A stretch of 35,774 bases of DNA from Candidatus Omnitrophota bacterium (GTDB lineage Bacteria > Omnitrophota > Gorgyraeia > JABMQH01): contig JBAWYO010000002.1 in the NCBI GenBank assembly GCA_037143495.1, forward strand, positions 1 to 35,774. The letters run 5' to 3'. A program made the position numbers and the translations under genes. Of this stretch, positions 11,418-26,655 are shown in pieces (the stretch's first letter is position 1; every line of letters begins with the position of its first letter). The notes under the pieces are model-generated. The model was not told the origin of the DNA. It searched no databases and was given only the letters and a program-made list of their open reading frames with translations.

Positions 11418-11819
11418 ATGAAGAAAATAATTATGGGAGTAGTAGTGGCGGTTTGTCTGGGGATGGCAGCTTGCGGATATGGTATTGCCGCCGGTAACGG
11501 GTATGTCGCCAGCAAGGGTTCCGACAAGTATCATCTGGCTGATTGCGGTACCGCAAAAAAGATCGACGCCGCTAACAAGGTAACGTTTGCCACGCCGGAA
11601 GAAGCCATAAAGGCCGGATATAGCCCTTGTAAAGTCTGCAACCCGCCGGTCAAGACGGTGGTTTTTGTCGGCAGCAAGAGCTCCGATAAGTATCACCAGT
11701 CGACCTGCAAAACCGCGGCTAATATCTCCAAGGAGAACCTGGTTACTTTTGCGAGCGAGAATGAGGCCGAAAAAGCCGGCTATTCACCTTGTCAGCTTTG
11801 TTGCAAGAAAAGCAAATAA
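11418..11819 (+). CDS. lipoprotein with two tandem Ada-type Zn-binding-like Cys motifs
   Basis: Signal peptide with lipobox-like LGMAAC. There are two ~48-aa repeats of S(K/S)SDKYH..(D/T)C......I...N.VTFA..(E)EA.KAGYSPC..C. GGAGGAAAAGGAG Shine-Dalgarno upstream. Confidence 0.65.
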   Translation: MKKIIMGVVVAVCLGMAACGYGIAAGNGYVASKGSDKYHLADCGTAKKIDAANKVTFATPEEAIKAGYSPCKVCNPPVKTVVFVGSKSSDKYHQSTCKTAANISKENLVTFASENEAEKAGYSPCQLCCKKSK

Positions 11820-12554: not shown

Positions 12555-12633
12555 GGTGGGTGTAGCTCAGCTTGGCTAGAGCACTTGACTGTGGCTCAAG
12601 GTGTCGCGGGTTCAAATCCCGTCACCCACCCCA
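12555..12633 (+). tRNA. tRNA-His (anticodon GUG) with encoded G-1 and CCA
   Basis: G-1 at 12555. Acceptor is GTGGGTG/CACCCAC. Anticodon arm is CTTGA-CTGTGGC-TCAAG. T arm is GCGGG-TTCAAAT-CCCGT. Discriminator C, then CCA at 12631-12633. Confidence 0.9.
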
Positions 12634-12733
12634 TTTTTTGGCTTTATTAGAAAGCAGAGCAATTTGTTTTGCTTTTTTATTGTGAACTAGAAAGTTTGGA
12701 GGTAGTAAAATTAGGCAACATAGTCATTGCGTC

Positions 12734-13210
12734 ATGAATGAAGAGTTCAGTATTTCAAAACTCGATACGGTAACTTTACAACTACAATTTAAAGATCGCT
12801 ACTATACAGACGTCATTTTCAAATTGTCATATAAGAACTATGAGAATCTTTTAAAGTTTTTAAACATCACTACGAATAGAAAATACCTTCCAAAAGATGC
12901 CTGGGGGTATAAAGGGTTTGATGTCGGCAGAAACAAGCTCATTTATTATAAAGATAAAGTGGACAACAAAATATTTAAATTATTTTATTCTGATGAGAAT
13001 GATCCGAGCCTCTCGAAAGACGATAAATGGCAAATCGCGTGTCATAAAAGAGAGATAAAGAATGTTAAAAAACATCATTTATATGGACATATTTTTTTAC
13101 GACAGGGTAGTATTGATGTAGGTATGGAGCGAATAAAATTCGTTAGATTTCGCAGATTTGTTTTGACGGCAGACAAGAAGACAGTGCCTTCTCGCTATTC
13201 CAAAAATTAG
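12734..13210 (+). CDS. hypothetical protein in a very AT-rich segment
   Basis: 158-aa ORF, Lys/Asn/Tyr-rich, with no motif recognised. Its composition is strongly atypical for this window. Confidence 0.45.
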   Translation: MNEEFSISKLDTVTLQLQFKDRYYTDVIFKLSYKNYENLLKFLNITTNRKYLPKDAWGYKGFDVGRNKLIYYKDKVDNKIFKLFYSDENDPSLSKDDKWQIACHKREIKNVKKHHLYGHIFLRQGSIDVGMERIKFVRFRRFVLTADKKTVPSRYSKN

Positions 13211-13303
13211 CCAGGAATTACCTCTCAGAATCGTAGAATTTGGTATATAGTAAGGCAATATCTGTATATAAGTGCCGTGTGCAAGGTAGAGAGATTTCAC
13301 CTC

Positions 13304-13324
13304 GGTTCATACGTCACCCGCCCA
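13304..13324 (+). repeat. degenerate copy of the tRNA-His 3' end (att-like scar)
   Basis: GGTTCATACGTCACCCGCCCA compared with tRNA GGTTCAAATCCCGTCACCCACCCCA (12609-12633). The shared blocks are GGTTCA and CGTCACCC.CCC. Confidence 0.45.
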
Positions 13325-13331
13325 GATTTAT

Positions 13332-13367
13332 AACCCTTTATAAGGCTTTATGGCCTTGTAAAGGGTT
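13332..13367. terminator. 15-bp hairpin between the att-like scar and the 3' end of the 835-aa gene
   Basis: AACCCTTTATAAGGC-tttatg-GCCTTGTAAAGGGTT (one G-U pair) followed by TTGAGTTTT on the plus strand. It lies 27 nt downstream of the minus-strand stop at 13394. Confidence 0.5.
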
Positions 13368-13393
13368 TTGAGTTTTCAGGGTATGGCGAACTG

Positions 13394-15901
13394 CTATATT
13401 GATTCTACGCGCGCGCGTTCTGCTTTCATTACACTCATAAGCAAGGTCTGCGGGATCGCGTCAAAATAATGGGTCGCGCGTCGGTGATAAAAATCACACA
13501 GCTCATAATCTCCACTGGTAGACTCCAGCAAAGATAACTCCTCAAAGGCCAGTCCCAAAATACAAAAAACCTCATCTTTTGATAATGGTGTTTGCCTGCT
13601 GTCGAACCGAGCGAACGAATCAGCGCAAACCTGCGATGTGAGAGTTGGCTCCCTAGCGGCGAGCGCTTCAGCGCTGTTTAATGCCACAGCAGTTTCAGAT
13701 TGCTCGGAGAGCACTTGCTCCACGAGAGAGCGTGCGCTTATGTATCGGCCTTCTTCGAGCGCCTGTTCTATCTGGCAATCGCGAGCCAATAATAATTGCT
13801 CAGACCACTCGGTTTTTTTAGGATCTTTTTTGGCGAGGTGGGCTGTGAGAGCTGCCACTTCTTCCGTACTGACGCGAAGATCGAGCGCCTCGCGCAATTT
13901 TTGTATTGCATCGCGTTCCATGCCGTCTACATCTATCGAGAGTGCTCGCATAATAGGCAATAATCCGTCCTGAGCAAGGTCGGTTATAACATCCTGCGGC
14001 CTGAAAGCTGCGCGGTATATCTTTCCGACAAACCAGGCTACAAAATAAGGATCGCGTTCGCGGTCGATTACGTAATTATTTAGTTTTGTATCCGATATGA
14101 GAGCGCCGGCGCCATAGGGGAGGTACAGATGATTCTCAAGACCAGTATCGAGATCCCGTTGGGCTTCATGAAGATCGAGACCTTTTTTTCTGCGCCGTTC
14201 TACAACGCTCAGTTGGCCCTCATATTGGCTCTTTAAATATATCCGCGCGGCGAGCTGAGTTTTCGGCATATTGGCAAATATTGAAATTATAGACTCAATA
14301 TGAGCATCGATATCTTTTGCTGCCTGTTTAACTTCAGCAACTTTTCGTTGTCGTTGCAATTCTCTTCTATGGAGAACAAGCGCTTCGAGGCGGCTTATAG
14401 CAGCGTCAAGGGTTGCCCGTCTTGCTACAAGCTGTTGCCAATATGCCGCGGAAGAAAAGAGACCTGATTTATTGGCGACATAATCATGCATGAGTGTTGT
14501 TGCATCATCATCAGGTCGGCATAATGAGAGCTGCTTTATTCGTATGCAACGTAATGCTCTGCGGATGTTGACTTCTTTTGTTTGATCGGCCACAGGGTAT
14601 TGCAAGCGTAAGGTGCGGTTTCGATAGTCGTCAAGTGCGCCGTAAGGGTCGAAGATGGAGCCGTTGCCCCATACTCCGACACCATCCATGCGTAGAAAAT
14701 TGTAGGTGCCCATCTCGAAGCGGCCTTCGGCGTGGAAATAAACACCGTCCGTCGTGACATACCCGGCGTAATCAATGCAGCTTCCTTCGAAAACGTTATT
14801 TTTTACGCGTTCAGGGTCCTGGACAATAATACCGTTTTGCGCCAGGTAATCAGCGATGTCGCCTTGTTTGAGCCCGAGTGCCGTTTCGAGACGATTAACT
14901 GCAGGTAAGACATAGCGGCGTTCTTTTTCCAAGTATGAAGAGAAGCGGGTAGAGTTTCTGATTTGTAAGGCGGTACCTTGGAAGGGCTCTTTATCCGCGT
15001 AACGCCTCTGATAGACACTCTCTATTCTAGCATAGGCTTCATTGTCGGACTTAACTGACCCAAGATAAGCCTCTAGCGCTGTGACGTGTTCTCTTATAGT
15101 GGCCAGGTCTGCTTCGCGCAGAATTCGCTGATCTTCAGCTGTCAATTCGCCGTGAGCGAATTGCGCGTATGTCTCGTAGTCGACTCTAAGCAGATCAAGA
15201 GTACTGGCAGGTATTGCTGCCACGATATCCAAGTCGGCGAGTACGCCCTCGCGCCCTGAGAACATATTACGTCCATGGCCTCCGAAGATGATAAAGTCGT
15301 TTTCAAGTCCATGGCGGCGCAGCACGTCCATAAAATGGCGAGTCCTCTGGGTAAGGATATCACTGTCTCGTACCCTTAGGTCATGGCGCGCACCGCTGCG
15401 TATTAGCACTTTTGGATCGCTAAGCGGGAGAGTGAGGGTTAAAGTGACCTCTGTTTGTCCGTCAACCCGTGCCGTCTTATGATAAAAGCGGCAATACATA
15501 TCATCGGCGGTGTCCCGGAACTCCCCGGTGGTTGCAGCCTGTTCCATGCCCGCTTCGTCTACTGTGTTTGCTTCGCAGAAAACCCTGACAAGAGCGCGCT
15601 CACTTCCTGTGCGGACATGGACCCGCAGAGTGTTATGTGACAGAGCGCTATTTTTGAGGGCGACTTGAATGATTTGAGACAAGAGCCTGTCGAGCAAATC
15701 AGGGGGCCACGAGACGTGAGGAGAGTCTCCGGATAGGGTAACTGATATTAGGGGCAAGCCTCCGCGATGCGAATTAATTTGATCTATTGCGCGGCGTATC
15801 GTTGTCTGTAGATCAAGGTCATATCGTTGACAGATGAGGTAATCTTGCTCGGCATGCGAGAGCGGCCGTAGGTAGCGTAGGGGGGGGGCAGGCGTATGCA
15901 A
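13394..15901 (-). CDS. 835-aa multidomain protein: degenerate HATPase_c-like N-terminus + class-II nucleotidyltransferase (CCA-adding/PAP-like) motifs + long helical C-terminus
   Basis: aa 60-160 (DLLDRLLSQIIQVALKNS...TLRVHV...VRVFCEAN...TEVTLTLTLPL) resemble a GHKL/His-kinase ATPase fold without clear G-boxes. aa 204-226 (IIFGGHGRNMFSGREGVLADLDIV) fit GG..R(D/N)...G-x-D.D. aa 416-455 (IFDPYGALDDYRNRTLRL...IRRALRCIRI) fit DPY.G..D..NR.LR...LR.LR..RF. The only in-frame start is TTG 15901, with no SD. Confidence 0.6.
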   Translation of the reverse strand: MHTPAPPLRYLRPLSHAEQDYLICQRYDLDLQTTIRRAIDQINSHRGGLPLISVTLSGDSPHVSWPPDLLDRLLSQIIQVALKNSALSHNTLRVHVRTGSERALVRVFCEANTVDEAGMEQAATTGEFRDTADDMYCRFYHKTARVDGQTEVTLTLTLPLSDPKVLIRSGARHDLRVRDSDILTQRTRHFMDVLRRHGLENDFIIFGGHGRNMFSGREGVLADLDIVAAIPASTLDLLRVDYETYAQFAHGELTAEDQRILREADLATIREHVTALEAYLGSVKSDNEAYARIESVYQRRYADKEPFQGTALQIRNSTRFSSYLEKERRYVLPAVNRLETALGLKQGDIADYLAQNGIIVQDPERVKNNVFEGSCIDYAGYVTTDGVYFHAEGRFEMGTYNFLRMDGVGVWGNGSIFDPYGALDDYRNRTLRLQYPVADQTKEVNIRRALRCIRIKQLSLCRPDDDATTLMHDYVANKSGLFSSAAYWQQLVARRATLDAAISRLEALVLHRRELQRQRKVAEVKQAAKDIDAHIESIISIFANMPKTQLAARIYLKSQYEGQLSVVERRRKKGLDLHEAQRDLDTGLENHLYLPYGAGALISDTKLNNYVIDRERDPYFVAWFVGKIYRAAFRPQDVITDLAQDGLLPIMRALSIDVDGMERDAIQKLREALDLRVSTEEVAALTAHLAKKDPKKTEWSEQLLLARDCQIEQALEEGRYISARSLVEQVLSEQSETAVALNSAEALAAREPTLTSQVCADSFARFDSRQTPLSKDEVFCILGLAFEELSLLESTSGDYELCDFYHRRATHYFDAIPQTLLMSVMKAERARVESI
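15880..15888 (-). repeat. homopolymeric C9 (plus-strand G9) tract at codons 4-8 of the 835-aa gene
   Basis: Nine consecutive G on the plus strand (15880-15888), encoding ..P-A-P-P-L.. on the minus strand. Confidence 0.95.
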
Positions 15902-16138
15902 TGCTTGTCTGCAATAGTAGGAAGCTGATAATCACAAGACTCTTTATCTTATTGTGTAAGCACATAGCACTAATAGTTTATCATAAAATCAATAAAAAGC
16001 AATAGACTTTTTTATAACCTAACAAATTTATTATAATTATCACTGGGGGGACACTTTCTATCAGAGCATTTAGGGGATCGCGACTAATAGGCGCTCGGCA
16101 GGATAAAAGCTATGATGGCGCAGATTCTGTTATTAAGA

Positions 16139-16167
16139 AGGTTCTAACCTGGTTGCACCAGCGACCC
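16139..16167 (+). repeat. 29-bp direct repeat, copy 1 (upstream of the ATPase gene)
   Basis: AGGTTCTAACCTGGTTGCACCAGCGACCC. 27/29 identical to 17407-17435. Confidence 0.85.
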
Positions 16168-16177
16168 GTATTTTTTT

Positions 16178-16213
16178 CCCCTCTGCGATGATAGACCCCG
16201 TAGAGGGGTTTTT
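16178..16213 (+). terminator. hairpin plus T5 (rho-independent terminator-like)
   Basis: CCCCTCT...AGAGGGG, or the inner stem CCCC-gtaga-GGGG, followed by TTTTT at 16209-16213. Confidence 0.45.
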
Positions 16214-16229
16214 CTATGTGCATTTATAC

Positions 16230-16258
16230 TTGCATATAGTTTAACTATATGATATACT
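16230..16258 (+). promoter_or_regulatory. sigma70-like promoter with extended -10, abutting ATG 16265
   Basis: TTGCAT 16230-35, 17 nt, TGaTATACT 16250-58, 6 nt to ATG 16265. Confidence 0.5.
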
Positions 16259-16264
16259 TTGATC

Positions 16265-17404
16265 ATGAAGAACAGGCCATTCTGGAAAGCCGCCGTCGAG
16301 GAGAGGTTTAAGGAAAAGTCGATCATATGGTTGACCGGCGTACGGCGTGTCGGTAAGACGTTCCTGTGCAAGAGTTTTGATGGGGTCGATTATTTTGATT
16401 GCGAGCTCCCGAGCGTACGGCGCATGCTGGAGGACCCCGAGCAATTTCTGGAAAGCGTGCGCGGACGGCGGATCGTGTTGGACGAGATCCATCGGCTGCC
16501 AAATCCTTCAGAAATATTGAAAATAGCCGCTGACCACTACCCTGATATACAGGTCATAGCGACAGGATCTTCCGTTCTCAGCGCTTCGGCAAAATTCAAG
16601 GATACTCTGACCGACAGAAAAAGAGAGTTATGGCTTACCCCCATGATAGCGTCGGACGGAGGGTCTTTCGGCAATAACGATCTGAAGCACAGATTTTTAT
16701 ACGGCGGGCTGCCCCCTTTTTTCGCTTACGCCAAGTACCCGCAGCGGAATTTTCAAGACTGGATAGACGCTTTTTGGGCGAAAGATATCCAGGAGCTATT
16801 CAGGCTCGAACGGCGTTATTCTTTCCAGAAATTCTTTGAGCTTATTATGACTCAAAGCGGAGGCATATTTGAAGCCAATAGCTTTGCCGCCCCCTGTGGG
16901 GTGAGCCGGACCACCATCGCGAACTACTTAAAAGTGATGGAAGCAACTTTTACCGCGCATATTATCCGTCCCTTCAGCTCACACCGGCAGAACGAGATCA
17001 CCGCTGCGCCGAAAGTCTATGGTTTTGATACGGGGTTTGTTTGTTATTATCGAGGTTGGCATGAACTCAGAAATGACGACATGGGGTATTTGTGGGAACA
17101 TTTTGTTTTAAATGAACTGTTTGCCCATCTCCAGGAGCGGAATATAAGTTATTGGAGAGATAAACAGGCCCATGAGATCGATTTTGTGATCAGCAGGCGT
17201 GGGCACCCTTTGGTGGCGCTTGAATGTAAATGGCGCGACAAAGATTTTGATCCGGCGAATGCGAGATTATTCGCGCGGCATTATGATAAGACGAGAGTTT
17301 ATGTGGTATCTTCTAATGTGAACCGGCCCTATAGCCGCACCTACGGTGATCTCACTGTTAAATTTGTCGGCCTTGCGGATATTAAAGACATCTTAATGCA
17401 TTAA
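16265..17404 (+). CDS. AAA+ ATPase (AAA_14 + DUF4143 architecture) with PD-(D/E)xK-like C-terminal motif
   Basis: Walker A is LTGVRRVGKTFL and Walker B is RIVLDEIH. C-terminal EIDFVISRRGHPLVALECKW fits D-x13-E-x-K. Start set at ATG 16265; the track's 16259 is a TTG inside the promoter-to-ATG spacer. Confidence 0.75.
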   Translation: MKNRPFWKAAVEERFKEKSIIWLTGVRRVGKTFLCKSFDGVDYFDCELPSVRRMLEDPEQFLESVRGRRIVLDEIHRLPNPSEILKIAADHYPDIQVIATGSSVLSASAKFKDTLTDRKRELWLTPMIASDGGSFGNNDLKHRFLYGGLPPFFAYAKYPQRNFQDWIDAFWAKDIQELFRLERRYSFQKFFELIMTQSGGIFEANSFAAPCGVSRTTIANYLKVMEATFTAHIIRPFSSHRQNEITAAPKVYGFDTGFVCYYRGWHELRNDDMGYLWEHFVLNELFAHLQERNISYWRDKQAHEIDFVISRRGHPLVALECKWRDKDFDPANARLFARHYDKTRVYVVSSNVNRPYSRTYGDLTVKFVGLADIKDILMH

Positions 17405-17406
17405 AC

Positions 17407-17435
17407 AGGTTCTAACCTGATGGCACCAGCGACCC
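17407..17435 (+). repeat. 29-bp direct repeat, copy 2 (3 nt after the ATPase stop)
   Basis: AGGTTCTAACCTGATGGCACCAGCGACCC. Confidence 0.85.
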
Positions 17436-17479
17436 CAGAATTTTTATAGCTCATTACAGAGCTATCAGCTTGTAAAAAC

Positions 17480-17511
17480 CACCGGCATAGGTAGTTGTCG
17501 GTGATTTTTTT
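17480..17511 (+). terminator. weak hairpin plus T7
   Basis: CACCG-14 nt-CGGTG followed by ATTTTTTT. Confidence 0.35.
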
Positions 17512-17586
17512 GAGATCGTTACGTATATCATCAGATCTTGCCGGGTATTGCGAAGTTATCTAAGTGTGCGACAGGGGAGCGCGAAC

Positions 17587-18033
17587 ATGTCAGAGAGACG
17601 TAGACCGCTTGCTAAAACACCGGATGAAATATTAGAAAATGTCTTTGCGGGGCATCGTGAAGCATTGCTTGGCGGGAGCGAGAACGGGAAGCGGTATCTG
17701 CAGAATTATTTCGAAAAGTTCGACTCGATCCCTAATGCAGTAAAGTTTTTTATCTATGATCTTTTGGCGGAAGACGCCTATCAAGCCGATGATCTTGCCG
17801 TATGCCGACAAGCGGTAGATCTTGCCGGCCGGTACCTGGAGGAGGCGCGGGAAAAAAATAGTCGACAATTAGTCGAATACCTGCCCTCACTCCGCTTTGT
17901 CGAACGGGGAATATCGATCATGGTCGAAGCGGGTGAATTTGAAAAAGCCCTTTCTCTTTGCGACATAGCCATTAGAAGCGGTTTGGGGAAAGCGTACGCC
18001 GCTAAAAAGGCTTCTATAGAACAAATGCTGTAG
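17587..18033 (+). CDS. hypothetical helical (TPR-like?) protein
   Basis: ATG 17587 with AGGGGAG 7 nt upstream. Predicted all-helical (..AYQADDLAVCRQAVDLAGRYLEEA..AGEFEKALSLCDIAIRSG..). Confidence 0.5.
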   Translation: MSERRRPLAKTPDEILENVFAGHREALLGGSENGKRYLQNYFEKFDSIPNAVKFFIYDLLAEDAYQADDLAVCRQAVDLAGRYLEEAREKNSRQLVEYLPSLRFVERGISIMVEAGEFEKALSLCDIAIRSGLGKAYAAKKASIEQML

Positions 18034-18134
18034 TGATACCGTTAAGACAAGAAAACCTATTCGACGCGAGAACAACTGGTAATGCATGAGTATGTTGATG
18101 GCGTTCTGAATTCTAAAAACAAGGGGGCGGTCAC

Positions 18135-20368: not shown

Positions 20369-21040
20369 GTGCCAGAAAAGATCGTGATACCAATAAGAGG
20401 TCAGAGTAGTAACGTACGATTGCTGATTTCTATTGTTTTGATCGTCTTTATTATATCTGTTGTAATGTTTTTAAGTCCGGCAGCGGCAAAAGAACAAAAA
20501 ACAAAAAATCAGGAAGCTCTTTCCGCTCAGACCAGCGCGCCGCAGCCTCCGCCTCAAACCCAGCAAGCTCAGCAACCTCCACAACCCGCGCAATCCCCGC
20601 AATCCTTTGTTTCCGCCGTCAGCCCTATTACGCAAGCAGCCGTTAACGCGGGAGTTCTTTCCTGCGTGAGCCGAATTAACCAGGTCATCACCTACCTGAC
20701 CGCCGATACGCAAAATAGCGCGTACCTCTTTCTTCCCCGGCAAGCACCCGACCGGAGTATTTTTTCCGCATCCCTCGAGATAGAGGTCCCGAACGCGGGG
20801 CCCGTCTATGCCAGCGCCAGCTTTGCGCCGCTCTCAGGCGGCCAGGCGGGCGCGGTCTATGATACGGTCGAATACGTCGCTCAGACGCCTGATAACGTCG
20901 AAAAGAATTTTTTTAAAGGTTTGAAACGCGTGGGAGTTATCAGGAAAGATATTGTCGTTTTAGACGGGGGAGCGGTTAAAGTTTTTCTCATGCCCGCGGG
21001 AAGCGGGTGTGTTGTCGTTAAAAAGGAGATCGTCCAGTAG
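20369..21040 (+). CDS. membrane-anchored/exported protein with PQ-rich linker; candidate partner of the downstream adhesin
   Basis: TM/signal anchor LLISIVLIVFIISVVMFL, low-complexity SAPQPPPQTQQAQQPPQPAQSPQS, then a ~140-aa globular part. The GTG start is uncertain. The stop lies 33 nt before the adhesin start used here (ATG 21074) and 3 nt before the alternative ATG 21044. Confidence 0.5.
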   Translation: MPEKIVIPIRGQSSNVRLLISIVLIVFIISVVMFLSPAAAKEQKTKNQEALSAQTSAPQPPPQTQQAQQPPQPAQSPQSFVSAVSPITQAAVNAGVLSCVSRINQVITYLTADTQNSAYLFLPRQAPDRSIFSASLEIEVPNAGPVYASASFAPLSGGQAGAVYDTVEYVAQTPDNVEKNFFKGLKRVGVIRKDIVVLDGGAVKVFLMPAGSGCVVVKKEIVQ

Positions 21041-21073
21041 TGCATGAATGAAACAAAAAAAGGAGGGCGGGAG

Positions 21074-23815
21074 ATGATCAATTGGTGCAAGCGAAAAAAA
21101 GGCCTTATTACTGCTGTTGTATGTGCGATCGTTCTGGTAGCGTCTGCGCCGGCGTGGGCATCTGATATTTCCAAGATCGACAATGTACAGATCGTGGCTG
21201 ATAACGACGGCAGAAATCCCGGGCATACCGCAAGCGGGGAATATATAGAGCTGCTTGTTTCGGGTCCGGTGGTCGACGGCTCCGATCATTATATAAACAC
21301 GCGTTTTTTCTCGGATTATACCCATATCTACGTTGCTACGCAGATGGATAGCACTTTAAATGTTAGCGGTACGATTACCGGTAATTTAACCGGCAATGTC
21401 ACGGGCAACGCATCGACCGCCACCAACGCTACGTACGCCACTACCGCGGGCGCGGTTGATGCCGGCAACTTGACCGGCACGACGTTGGCCAGCAATGTTG
21501 TTAATTCCAGTTTAACGTCGGTCGGGAATCTGACCGGTTTGGATGTTGACGGAACGACCACACTGACGAGCGCGTTAAACGGGCACAGCATTACGGTCAG
21601 CAACGCGGGAACGACGGTCGCGGGCGGCCTGACGGTCAGCAGCAGCGGAGCATCGATCACGGGTGGGATCGATAATAACACGGGCGGCATCACCAATGCC
21701 GGCGCAATATCGGGAGCTACGTCAGCGGTGATCGATAATATTCATATCAGCGACGCGACGAGCGGAGAGAACAATATCAGCGGCGTCACGACCTATTACG
21801 CGACGGATGGAACGAGGAATACGATCACCATGGACGGGACGACCGGCAATATCACCGCCGGCAATACCGGGAACGCCGGCGCTATCTATGTCAAAGACGC
21901 TTCGAATCACAGTAATGTAACCCTTGATGGCGTTGGCGGGACCTCGTCGGGCGGGCAGGTGACCGTCGCCAACGGCAGCGGGACGACGCAGATCACCCTT
22001 GATGGCGGTAACGGGAATATGACATCGGTGGGCGGCGTGATCCAGACCGGCACTGGCGCGGCTGCGATCTCTCTGGATGGGTCGAACGGGAACGCTTCGA
22101 TCGGCGGGAATCTGGATATGACCAACGGGAGCGTTAATAATGTGGCTACGCTCAACGCCTACAACGGCACACGCAATACGGTCGTCGTTAACGGGAATAA
22201 TACCGGCAACGGCCTTATTACCGTCGGGAATACAACGGGCAACAGCGAATCGGGCGCGATCAATCTCACCGACGGGTCGAACAACAGTATTACGTTAGCG
22301 GGGTCGACGGGTATCGCCACGATCGGCAACGCCGCCCACAGCGGGACCATTAAGGTTGTCGATGCTTCGGGCACGACCGGTGTGCAGCTGACCGGCGCCG
22401 GCGCGGGGACCTTCGGCAATCTCACCGATACCGCGGGATCGATCAATGTCACCAACGGAGCCACCGGGTACAACACGGTTACCTTAAATGGTACGGGCGG
22501 TACCGTTGCCAATAGCGGGCTGATGACCGTCCAGAGCGCCGCGGGTACGACCACGGTCAAGATCGACAGTTCCGGCAGTTCCGGCGGCGGTCAGATCAGC
22601 GTCGATAACAGCGCAGGCTATACCAACGCGCAGATCAACGGCGCCGGCACTATGACGCTTGGTAATACCAGCAACGCCGGGCACTACGTGAGCGGCGCGC
22701 TCAGCCTGGCGAATGGGACGGCGGGTAATAACGGCATTGTCCTTAACGGCGCCGGCGGCACCAATCCGAATACCGGCCTCTTGCAGGTCAATAACAGCTC
22801 GGGGAACGCCATCGCGTCCCTCAACGGCAGCGGGAGTTCGGTCATCGCCAACGGGTTTGCGGCGTATAGCGCCGGGACCGCCGCCTCGCACAGCGGCAGT
22901 AATGGTATTATCGTTACCGGCTCCGGCAACAGCAACACGTTGACGGTCGGTAATACGGCGGATACCGTCATGTCATTTACTGACGACACCGCGGCGCACA
23001 CGGTCTTTAACAGGACCGTTACCAACGGGTCAAGCATTACGGGAGGCGCTTCGATTTATGCGGGCGCCGGCGCGGTTTCTGATAACAGCATTTCCGTCAC
23101 GACGACCAAAAGCACGACCGTCAACGGCAATACGGTCAATTATGGGACGTATGTCAACGGTGGTATGCTTGTTGACGGTTCTTTAGGCGTCAACGGTAAC
23201 ATCTATACACTCAAGAGCGACGCCAACGCGTCGATCAATGTCGCCAACAATGGCTTAAATATCGCGGGCGCCACGAATGACGTTACGCTGACCTCAGATA
23301 ACAACGGCGCGCCTAGCGACGGCCGCGCTCAGCTGAACCTGACGCCGACGACTGGTTCGATGTTGGTTACGAATACAGGCACCGGGCATACGGAGGGTAT
23401 CAGTATCGGGCAGACCGAGACGGTCGTTTCCGGCGGTACTCATTCCACGAGCGTGACGTATAACGATTGGGGCGCGACATTCAAGAACGACGAGACGGGC
23501 GGGCCGGCGCGCGTGACCGGTATCGCCGACGGAAGTGAAGATTATGACGCGGTCAACTATCGCCAGTTAAAGGATATCAGGAACGCCGCCTACGCAGGAT
23601 CGGCCAACGCCGCGGCCCTGGCGGCCATTCCGCCGGTCGCTCCGGGGAAGACATTTTCGCTTGGAGCAGGATATGGTAATTATAAAGGCATGAACGCAAT
23701 CGCGACCGGGGTTAAGGTGGTCGTCGGTTCTAAGAAAGATATTATACTCTCCGGTGGTGTCAGCCACTGCGATCGCGAGATCAGCTCGAACGCGGGTTTA
23801 GGGTATAGCTGGTAA
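21074..23815 (+). CDS. trimeric autotransporter adhesin (YadA-like C-terminal anchor) with G/T/N/S-rich repetitive passenger
   Basis: C-terminus DAVNYRQLKD...AALAAIP...GKTFSLGAGYGNYKGMNAIATGVKV...LSGGVSH...NAGLGYSW matches a YadA-type 4-strand anchor. Signal peptide is MINWCKRKKGLITAVVCAIVLVASAPAWA. Start set at ATG 21074 (AGGAGG 21061-66, 7-nt spacing); ATG 21044 is the alternative. Confidence 0.8.
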   Translation: MINWCKRKKGLITAVVCAIVLVASAPAWASDISKIDNVQIVADNDGRNPGHTASGEYIELLVSGPVVDGSDHYINTRFFSDYTHIYVATQMDSTLNVSGTITGNLTGNVTGNASTATNATYATTAGAVDAGNLTGTTLASNVVNSSLTSVGNLTGLDVDGTTTLTSALNGHSITVSNAGTTVAGGLTVSSSGASITGGIDNNTGGITNAGAISGATSAVIDNIHISDATSGENNISGVTTYYATDGTRNTITMDGTTGNITAGNTGNAGAIYVKDASNHSNVTLDGVGGTSSGGQVTVANGSGTTQITLDGGNGNMTSVGGVIQTGTGAAAISLDGSNGNASIGGNLDMTNGSVNNVATLNAYNGTRNTVVVNGNNTGNGLITVGNTTGNSESGAINLTDGSNNSITLAGSTGIATIGNAAHSGTIKVVDASGTTGVQLTGAGAGTFGNLTDTAGSINVTNGATGYNTVTLNGTGGTVANSGLMTVQSAAGTTTVKIDSSGSSGGGQISVDNSAGYTNAQINGAGTMTLGNTSNAGHYVSGALSLANGTAGNNGIVLNGAGGTNPNTGLLQVNNSSGNAIASLNGSGSSVIANGFAAYSAGTAASHSGSNGIIVTGSGNSNTLTVGNTADTVMSFTDDTAAHTVFNRTVTNGSSITGGASIYAGAGAVSDNSISVTTTKSTTVNGNTVNYGTYVNGGMLVDGSLGVNGNIYTLKSDANASINVANNGLNIAGATNDVTLTSDNNGAPSDGRAQLNLTPTTGSMLVTNTGTGHTEGISIGQTETVVSGGTHSTSVTYNDWGATFKNDETGGPARVTGIADGSEDYDAVNYRQLKDIRNAAYAGSANAAALAAIPPVAPGKTFSLGAGYGNYKGMNAIATGVKVVVGSKKDIILSGGVSHCDREISSNAGLGYSW

Positions 23816-25582: not shown

Positions 25583-25948
25583 ATGAGTAAAAGCGCTATG
25601 AGCGTATTTGTGCATGGGGTCTACATAGTTTTTTTGGGAGTATTATTTTTATTTTTCCCAAACTCCTGCTTAGGGCTTCTGGGCATGAAGACAACCGGAG
25701 AAGTGTGGATCCGTGTCGCGGCCTGGTTCGTGCTCTGGCTGGGGGTCTATTATATCGTTGCCGCCCGCAGCGGATCGAAAGCATCTATTTATTTGACCTT
25801 GTACAGCCGCCCGGCATTTTTTCTTTTTCTGGCGACCCTGGCCGGCCTTAAGATGATAGAGCCCGTTTTTATGATCCTTGGCGCGGGAGATGTAGCGTCA
25901 GCGATCTGGACAGCCGCCGCACTGCGTTCTGAAAAAACTACCGCATGA
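25583..25948 (+). CDS. small integral membrane protein
   Basis: 121 aa with 4 hydrophobic segments. AAAGGGG SD. ATGA overlap with the next gene. Confidence 0.6.
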   Translation: MSKSAMSVFVHGVYIVFLGVLFLFFPNSCLGLLGMKTTGEVWIRVAAWFVLWLGVYYIVAARSGSKASIYLTLYSRPAFFLFLATLAGLKMIEPVFMILGAGDVASAIWTAAALRSEKTTA

Positions 25949-26655
25949 ATTTAATTGATTTCGGTTTTCAAAAATCAAACCTCTTCCAGCATATGCCGCT
26001 CTTTGACGAGATCCTCTATGTTGGGCATACCCAGGAGAAGGTGCGCCAGTATACCGCGATTCACGAGAACCGGACCTGCACCATCCTGTCGCTTAATTTT
26101 ATCCGCAATGATGAAAAGATCCTCTGGGACGCGGTAGAGGATTTTGTGAAAAGAGGCACCGCCAAAGCAGCCTCCAGCGTGCGCGGCAATCATATCTTCG
26201 ATCTCCTGACGATTGACATCCATAAAGAGATCGAGACGTTTAATTATAACGATCTTGCCGCCGTTATTATTGCCGCGGCGAGTCGCCTGGCCCCCGGAGG
26301 CGTCAGGATGATCAAGTACTCTTCCGCCTATGCGCTTATTCACAAAACGACCGCCGACGATTGGGGAAAGATAACCTTTAAGACCGCGGTAGATGTCTTC
26401 AGGCCCAAGCCCGATTATTTAGATATGCTTATCGCGATGCTTTTAAAGGATTATCTCTTTCCGCGCGATCCGGTCATTCTTTTGCTCAACGATTTGAGCC
26501 AGAATCCTGTTTTTGATCTCCAGAACGAGACGCAGCAAAAGAGGATCAAAAAAGTCATGGGAGAGCTTATTCCTACCTCCGTTGAATTTGTCCCCGAGGT
26601 CTATATCCAGGATAAGAACGGGGCGAGAGAACTGCTTTCGGGGTCTGCATTATAG
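25945..26655 (+). CDS. hypothetical protein (possibly degenerate class I methyltransferase-like fold)
   Basis: EILYVGHT, FDLLTIDIH and RLAPGGV loosely follow MTase motifs I, II and post-II, but the Gly-rich loop is absent. Confidence 0.4.
   Translation: MNLIDFGFQKSNLFQHMPLFDEILYVGHTQEKVRQYTAIHENRTCTILSLNFIRNDEKILWDAVEDFVKRGTAKAASSVRGNHIFDLLTIDIHKEIETFNYNDLAAVIIAAASRLAPGGVRMIKYSSAYALIHKTTADDWGKITFKTAVDVFRPKPDYLDMLIAMLLKDYLFPRDPVILLLNDLSQNPVFDLQNETQQKRIKKVMGELIPTSVEFVPEVYIQDKNGARELLSGSAL

Follow-up and report, generated by a model that had tools for sequence, protein, structure and literature searches.

An orphan protein from a lower-GC stretch of an Omnitrophota genome carries a segment similar to class II nucleotidyltransferases

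The CCA-adding enzymes and poly(A) polymerases that form class II of the nucleotidyltransferases (NTases) are usually conserved housekeeping proteins. Definitions of their motifs, including motif D with its EDxxR amino-acid template, are available (PMC11784652), and their known excursions into conflict biology are the phage-encoded copies devoted to tRNA repair (PMC7824862). A precedent for NTase toxins working on tRNA 3' ends is provided by MenT3, which is reported to modify tRNA acceptor ends (PMC7450476). The present text deals with a gene found in a 35,774-nucleotide stretch of a Candidatus Omnitrophota bacterium (assembly GCA_037143495.1, contig JBAWYO010000002.1, positions 1 to 35,774), hereafter called the window. 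Its whole open reading frame (ORF; 13394..15901, minus strand, stop codon at 13394-13396) encodes 835 amino acids (aa) from a TTG start. An initial annotation had described it as a kinase-type ATPase-like domain fused to motifs of the CCA-adding/poly(A) polymerase type, and both the ORF and all the motif strings that it quoted were located exactly where it had put them. The overall picture proposed here, with about even confidence, is that of a horizontally acquired, lineage-restricted multidomain protein whose centre would be a highly diverged class II NTase head and neck.

The observation that carries this picture concerns aa 399-455 (14537..14707, minus strand), a segment assigned as homologous to the class II motif B tail (TxN), motif C (DPxGxLxD..N[RK]xxR) and motif D region (RxLRxxRh), and which is specifically similar to these three parts of the class II family. 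The initial annotation had set aa 416-455 in parallel with a stretch of Escherichia coli Cca; the stretch as quoted is essentially verbatim when compared with the cca gene, and the parallel itself was borne out by BLASTP, Smith-Waterman, hhalign and a PDB search. With BLASTP against the real E. coli Cca, aa 413-473 align with Cca 103-162 at E 1e-4, and the Smith-Waterman alignment, which reaches back to TYNFLRMD over TINALAQD, scores 69 compared to 33.5 +/- 5.2 for shuffled sequences, none of 1000 shuffles reaching it (z-score ~6.8). With hhalign, the reference consisted of five class II heads, namely those of E. coli Cca, PcnB, 1MIV, 1VFG and 6IBP, the last three coming from a PDB search. Residues 399-455 were matched to TxNA, to motif C and to the helix of motif D, with probabilities of 85-94% and E from 1e-7 to 6e-6; the score of 46.8 was reached by 0 of 200 shuffles, which gave 11.8 +/- 2.4 with a maximum of 21.4. 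When 259 natural stop-to-stop ORFs from the window and four other loci were taken as a second background, the protein was the single outlier, with a score of 47.6 vs 21.8 for the next best. Besides, an unbiased phmmer search of 177,635 distinct PDB sequences with aa 390-480, at E <= 10, returned only the class II A-adding enzyme of Aquifex, in the form of three entries deposited as 'poly A polymerase' (1vfg, 4wbz and 4wby) and aligned at the homologous position with E 0.17. The motif C hinge (DPxGGxxDL) is present as FDPYGALDDYRNRTLR (aa 417-432), which forms the core of the significant alignments; the two strings quoted initially for this region are IFDPYGALDDYRNRTLRL (aa 416-433) and NIRRALRCIRIKQL (aa 445-458), and the motif D helix, RRALRCIRI, aligns with the class II family as well. 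Judging from these alignments, the segment probably descends from a class II NTase.

Upstream in the protein, other elements of the head may be recognized with less certainty. The motif A-like stretch IIFGGHGRNMFSGREGVLADLDIV (aa 204-227; 15221..15292, minus strand) contains G207-G208 and the putative metal-binding residues D223 and D225, and the counterpart of the class II motif reads GGHGRNMFSG...DLD (G207, G208, R211, N212, G216, D223, D225). In hhalign, the register is kept, with IIFGGHGRNMFSGREGVLADLD-IVAAIPAST lying over YLVGGAVRDLLLGK--xDxDxVxxAxPxEV at E 0.048. The initial assignment of aa 204-226 to class II motif A agrees in co-linearity and register, but is statistically marginal; only 2.2% of the protein's shuffles contain the generic pol-beta pattern hG[GS]x9-14Dh[DE]h. 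Motif A, together with helix B, is separated from the next head strands by a predicted helical insert of ~130 aa (aa ~240-370; 14792..15184, minus strand), where helices appear in both low-confidence AlphaFold models. Excision of aa ~251-365 allows hhalign to span head columns 1-164, the score increasing only from ~46.5 to 51.5. The initial annotation had pointed to a long helical insert in a gap of about 190 aa and to a missing RRD motif, and it was correct in both respects, the distance from motif A to motif C being ~188 aa. Between the insert and motif B, CIDYAGYVTT (aa 375-384; 14750..14779, minus strand) includes D377, a candidate third catalytic carboxylate selected by eye and not statistically supported: IDYAGYVTT resembles the class II hEhTTFR strand by eye and in a greedy hhalign alignment, to which it adds no score.

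Several data weigh against a class II NTase at the centre of the protein. As regards motif A, the alignment taken alone is not significant, its score being reached by 11 of 200 shuffles, and the GG-to-D spacing, of 14 residues and not 12, is generic, being as compatible with motifs of the AbiEii type as with class II. An unbiased PDB search with the motif A fragment retrieved no NTase, only an unrelated hydrolase at E 0.18, and a PDB match with E of ~0.2 therefore means little alone. Further along the head, the candidate third carboxylate is separated from TxN by ~16 aa less than in real enzymes, and motif B (RRDFTxNA) is not recovered, the aligned FEMGTYNF keeping only T399 and N401, without RRD. 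hhalign sets the EDxxR template against E443-(V)-N445-x-x-R448, and the ungapped phmmer alignment sets it against T441-K442-x-x-N445; in neither register is the templating Asp, an essential residue of the human enzyme, conserved (N445 or K442). AlphaFold2 run without an alignment gave a predicted local distance difference test (pLDDT) of 35.8 for the full length and 34.2 for aa 170-480, both models being of low confidence. The comparison with Pfam PolyA_pol that had been advised initially also failed: in tests of PF01743 and PF12627 covering the whole protein, aa 171-480, two insert-excised constructs and the unspliced aa 366-480 fragment, no PolyA_pol model matched even at E <= 10, whether the insert was excised or not. 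No pairwise similarity to E. coli PcnB was detected, and the exhaustive scan of 1.84 billion proteins described below gave no NTase at E <= 1e-3. Finally, orphanhood in itself is not remarkable in this window, and with only two family members known, conservation and neighbourhood statistics are barred. The protein cannot be filed under PF01743, HATPase_c, AbiEii or any PADLOC system.

The initial annotation, which knew of no described family with such a combination, had called the protein an orphan, and this is essentially supported: across all collections, it retrieves itself and one relative. No family of Pfam, NCBIfam or PADLOC matches it at E <= 1, and its sole PHROG match (phrog_36661, aa 514-556, E 0.068) is at chance level. 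Pfam searches of sub-segments at E <= 10 gave nothing for aa 1-170 nor for aa 171-480, and for aa 481-835 only PF17765 (E 0.082) and PF25399 (E 1.1), both at chance level. A word-indexed search of 5.8 billion clusters with the whole protein returned nothing except itself, the same type of search with aa 371-480 added no further relatives, and an exhaustive phmmer (HMMER) scan of 1.84 billion representative proteins retrieved itself and a single other protein, P0002. A profile of the C-terminal domain shared with P0002 found no new members in the protein index, the PDB, IMG/VR and the JGI metagenomes, and a search for this domain in 185,579 species genomes recovered only P0002's own genome. The gene is present on a second contig, from the metagenome-assembled genome GCA_964655305.1, which is 99.99% identical over 17.4 kb and shows two differences, neither of them inside the gene; by its sequence, this contig is from the same strain, and the gene is thus a single-strain occurrence. 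No species representative has a citrate synthase more than 60% identical to that of the host, and the matches are scattered across phyla. An empty-site and synteny test of the island based on citrate synthase was attempted and was uninformative, the nearest genomes being 60% identical and phylogenetically scattered. Three further ORFs of the window, at 21044-23815, 25945-26655 and 20369-21040 (923, 236 and 223 aa, the last one in part rich in Q and P), lack any Pfam match at E <= 0.001, in keeping with a host genome rich in unannotatable proteins and with a poorly sampled lineage. Because of this sampling and of these other unmatched ORFs, the orphan status is real, yet less surprising than for a member of a well-sampled clade.

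The relative, P0002, is a protein of 432 aa from Candidatus Aadella gelida, of the phylum Omnitrophota, and it shares with the target the helical domain of aa 481-748 (13658..14461, minus strand), found only in these two proteins (phmmer E 1.6e-26, 30% identity over 268 aa). The best-conserved block, RDPYFVAWFVGKIYRAAFRP...GLLP, covers aa 616-649, and the invariant blocks common to both proteins include RDPxxVAWF..K.YRAA.RP...GLLP. Downstream, the C-terminal tail (aa 749-835; 13397..13657, minus strand) is predicted to be helical and has no counterpart in P0002; according to the secondary structure of the low-confidence AlphaFold models, which are the only source on this point, the whole of aa 470-835 would be all-helical. 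P0002 differs in standing alone, without the NTase-like or the N-terminal part, in having another C-terminal tail, and in being preceded by a group II intron fragment; its reading frame extends at most 10 codons upstream.

The surroundings of P0002 were compared among its assemblies (loci L002-L010 and L093), several of which break directly upstream of it. On the longest contigs, a coiled-coil fragment that abuts the contig edge, an AbiEii NTase toxin gene, an HTH_3 gene (HipB/Xre-like) and a 47-aa ORF precede it, in that order. All assemblies carry, on the strand of P0002 and 143 nt before its start, a D1-D4 fragment of a group II intron (RF01999, 111 bits), and in one of them, intron domains D5/D6 replace the AbiEii-HTH pair, 28 nt before the D1-D4 fragment (intron features at L002:1726-1842, and at L005:29-104 and 132-248). 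P0002 starts where an intron-encoded protein would begin; it lacks a reverse-transcriptase signature, however, and is not followed by D5/D6. The idea that the neighbouring AbiEii and HTH proteins correspond, in the manner of a Rosetta stone, to the N-terminal parts of the target was rejected, BLASTP detecting no similarity and hhalign being insignificant. A weak PADLOC match to AbiEii (PDLC02320, E 0.0076) falls on P0002 aa 157-233, equivalent to aa ~637-713 of the target. When the shared domain was compared by hhalign with the neighbouring AbiEii, the same GLLP-containing stretch was picked, at E 0.16, which does not confirm the PADLOC match; the latter may be noise, or it may point faintly to the helical part of AbiEii toxins. 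The P0002 locus is a hotspot of mobile elements and toxin-antitoxin genes, and as the sole relative of the shared domain resides there, this context weakly supports an accessory or conflict role of the domain.

At the gene level, the composition of the ORF is of the coding type, the GC contents at its first, second and third codon positions (GC1/GC2/GC3) being 0.61/0.41/0.48; the surrounding well-annotated genes have a GC3 of 0.69. The gene is monocistronic, the 158-aa ORF (orf158) on one side being convergent and an AAA_14/DUF4143 ATPase gene on the other side divergent. The only public gene call, P0001 (717 aa), starts not at TTG1 but at the ATG of M119 (15545..15547, minus strand), and no convincing Shine-Dalgarno sequence precedes either of these two codons. 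Upstream of M119, 128 codons are free of stops, which is achieved by 0.7% of composition-matched shuffles, and codon scoring favours the target frame from about codon 51 on. In view of these open codons and of the codon scoring, most of the extension before M119 is probably translated, the start codon itself being uncertain. Along the gene, GC3 drops to 0.30-0.37 at codons 451-550 (14252-14551), compared to 0.45-0.58 elsewhere, and since this dip is located at the junction of the NTase-like part and the P0002-like domain, it hints at different origins for the two.

The gene belongs to a lower-GC stretch (12634-18134, 46.4%, compared to 54% in the flanks), and the setting beside an AAA+ ATPase noted in the initial annotation was found as described, the adjacent gene being of the AAA_14/DUF4143 type. 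The lowest GC content of the window, 34.9%, is reached at 12634-13393, next to a tRNA-His gene (12556..12633, plus strand) that marks the left edge of the stretch. No integrase was found on the island, the window contains no repeat of the tRNA-His 3' end that could be an attachment (att) site, and an Rfam scan of the island detected no RNA element other than tRNAs; positions 12556-13393 resemble the margin of a degraded island that had targeted a tRNA. The foreign composition (GC and GC3) and the neighbourhood of tRNA-His and of the PADLOC single-gene candidate PDC-S01 were counted in favour of the picture given above. Orf158 (12734-13210, 35% GC), convergent with the target, has no informative match, its best PHROG hit (E 0.049) being at chance level, nor was any informative match obtained in Pfam, PADLOC, NCBIfam and PHROG for a 161-aa ORF. 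Between orf158 and the stop codon of the target lies an imperfect hairpin of 16 bp followed by a T-rich tail (13332-13367, plus strand), likely the terminator of orf158 and possibly bidirectional. On the other side of the target, the divergent ATPase gene (16259..17404, plus strand) strongly matches PDC-S01 and has, in addition, weak restriction-endonuclease-like matches. Direct repeats of 36 nt (89% identical, ATTAAGAAGGTTCTAACCTGGTTGCACCAGCGACCC) bracket it at 16132-16167 and 17400-17435, the core of the repeat having two copies in the window and none in 185k species genomes. Because it is bracketed by repeats of its own, the ATPase gene probably forms a cassette that was inserted independently, instead of sharing an operon with the target. 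In PADLOC-DB v2, this ATPase is the only one of the two to match, the target corresponding to no defence-protein model, and no antitoxin-like gene adjoins the target, whose defence or toxin role is contextual and unproven. Three tRNA genes (Pro, Arg and His) are clustered and interleaved with small genes, one of which (11418-11819, between tRNA-Arg and a 177-aa ORF) encodes a protein of 133 aa that looks secreted and has two Ada_Zn_binding-like repeats.

These data have been weighed against four other explanations. The main one, unlikely but the most serious, is that of an NTase-derived pseudoenzyme, i.e. a scaffold binding RNA or nucleotides without catalysis, whose function would reside in the C-terminal domain common with P0002. 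The loss of RRD, the non-conserved EDxxR, the interruption of the head by the ~130-aa insert, the shortened motif B helix region and the failure of Pfam to recognize an NTase domain all agree with it, as does the fact that the sole conserved part, the C-terminal domain, exists in P0002 without any NTase part. Catalytic residues of this kind usually decay in pseudoenzymes, whereas G207-G208, D223 and D225 are intact and in the right register, and the motif C hinge is well conserved. It is appreciably less probable that no NTase is involved at all, the match of ~57 residues at motifs C/D being convergent or a captured fragment, GG...DxD a product of chance, and the fold unrelated. No curated hidden Markov model (HMM) detects an NTase domain, hhalign gains almost nothing outside aa 399-455, PcnB shows no similarity, and the PDB phmmer match (E 0.17) is as weak as that of the motif A fragment to an unrelated hydrolase. 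Yet the hhalign score is far beyond both null distributions, that of shuffles and that of natural ORFs, the sole PDB matches belong to the family predicted beforehand and fall at the homologous position, and four elements (GG..DxD, TxN, DPxG..D and RxLRxxR) follow one another in the family order. Very improbable, finally, is a decaying mosaic ORF, assembled on a degraded island from an NTase piece and a P0002-like piece and unmaintained: although the island lacks an integrase and is of heterogeneous composition, with the GC3 dip of 0.30-0.37 at the codon 451-550 junction, and although the gene occurs in a single strain without a clear ribosome-binding site, an uninterrupted frame of 835 codons would be very unlikely without selection or a very recent origin. 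The long invariant blocks kept with P0002, at 30% identity over 268 aa, and the preserved residues of catalytic type point in the same direction.

The fourth explanation is the full architecture of the initial annotation, in which a degenerate histidine-kinase/GHKL ATPase-like domain (aa 10-160) would regulate the fused NTase effector, and it deserves hardly any credence. The region concerned, aa 1-169 (15395..15901, minus strand), is unassigned and holds the strings that were read as H-box (PLSHAEQDYL, aa 13-22), N-box (LLSQIIQVALKNS, aa 73-85) and terminal strand (TEVTLTLTLPL, aa 150-160). The N-box-like helix does fall in the N-box register with real catalytic and ATP-binding (CA) domains, a GHKL fold without a lid would fit the low-confidence secondary structure (helix, strands, helix, strands), and from about codon 51 onwards the open frame has a coding-like character. 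However, the stripped histidine-kinase core proposed for aa 10-160 does not rise above chance with Pfam, the PDB or hhalign: HATPase_c (PF02518), the model against which a check had been advised, is not matched by the N-terminus at E <= 10, and a PDB search with the same region gave no match. hhalign yielded E 0.12 against two genuine histidine kinases of the same window, and E 0.098 with a probability of 0.6% against five CA domains, three of them from the PDB, 17 of 200 shuffles being equal or better (over both comparisons, E is 0.098 to 0.12 and the probability ~0.5%). The short alignment with CA domains falls on the N-box, but V80 occupies the place of the conserved Asn, and there is neither a G1 (DxGxG) nor a G2 box. 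Besides, the public gene call begins at M119, within the supposed domain. Compared to the histidine kinase/GHKL proteins (PF02518), the target thus shares only two features, a helix superimposable on the N-box and a hydrophobic terminal strand with LPL at its end; it differs from them in lacking statistical similarity, the N-box Asn, G1 and G2, and the spacing from the H-box to the N-box is ~60 aa vs ~100 aa in the window's own kinases.

Returning to the class II reading, aa ~200-460 would be a highly diverged descendant of the head and neck of the CCA-adding enzyme/poly(A) polymerase family, having kept the GG/DxD and hinge motifs without RRD and the canonical template, and having acquired a large helical insert. 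The protein would accordingly be organized as ~170 unassigned N-terminal residues, the NTase centre, and a novel helical domain with one relative. A nucleotide triphosphate may be bound via G207/G208, D223, D225 and perhaps D377, untemplated nucleotide transfer to an RNA 3' end may follow, and the insert and C-terminal domain could serve to bind the substrate or in regulation. That the protein is catalytically active on RNA 3' ends is put forward tentatively, at less than even confidence. Nucleotidyl transfer to RNA 3' ends with a non-CCA specificity would be the likeliest mechanism, since the canonical Asp/Arg template is lost and the specificity would hence not be CCA. The role of the protein is probably accessory, in inter-genome conflict or RNA repair, and not housekeeping, given that a single, patchily distributed gene is found in a tRNA-His-adjacent low-GC island with a candidate defence ATPase alongside. 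More speculative, and rather unlikely, is the extended proposal of an undescribed and extremely rare family of class II-derived NTases, with a replaced template, a ~130-aa head module and a C-terminal targeting domain, which would act as single-gene conflict effectors or repair enzymes adding non-CCA nucleotides to tRNA or RNA 3' ends. Should an active, island-borne derivative with a rewritten template and new domains indeed exist, the RNA 3'-end-modifying effectors would extend beyond AbiEii/MenT, and a natural experiment on the setting of specificity by the motif D template would be at hand. With a two-member family, the present value of the gene is that of a lead and not of a finding.

At that stage, the protein can be placed with respect to the two closest groups of described systems. 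With the class II tRNA nucleotidyltransferases and the bacterial poly(A) polymerase (PF01743 + PF12627; E. coli Cca, Geobacillus CCA 1MIV, Aquifex 1VFG), it has in common co-linear motif elements, namely a statistically marginal GGxxR[DN]xxxG...DxD, TxN, DPxG[GA]LxDxxN[RK]xxR and RxLRxxR[FI]. It differs from them in staying below every curated HMM threshold, in the absence of RRD and in an EDxxR changed to E(V)NxxR or TKxxN depending on the register, as well as in the ~130-aa helical insert of the head, the shortened motif B region and the 170 extra N-terminal residues. Its C-terminal 355 aa are unrelated in sequence to the known body/tail or HD domains and, by its gene context, it is not a housekeeping protein. 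With AbiEii/MenT (DUF1814, PF08843; type IV/VII toxin-antitoxin and abortive infection), it shares a putative pol-beta-type GG...DxD of similar spacing (14 in the AbiEii of locus L002) and an accessory, mobile-island lifestyle, the sole relative of its C-terminal domain lying two genes away from an AbiEii gene. In contrast to these toxins, however, it is matched by no AbiEii model of Pfam or PADLOC at E <= 1, shows no BLAST similarity to the L002 AbiEii and has no adjacent antitoxin gene, and its significant similarity is to the class II enzymes.

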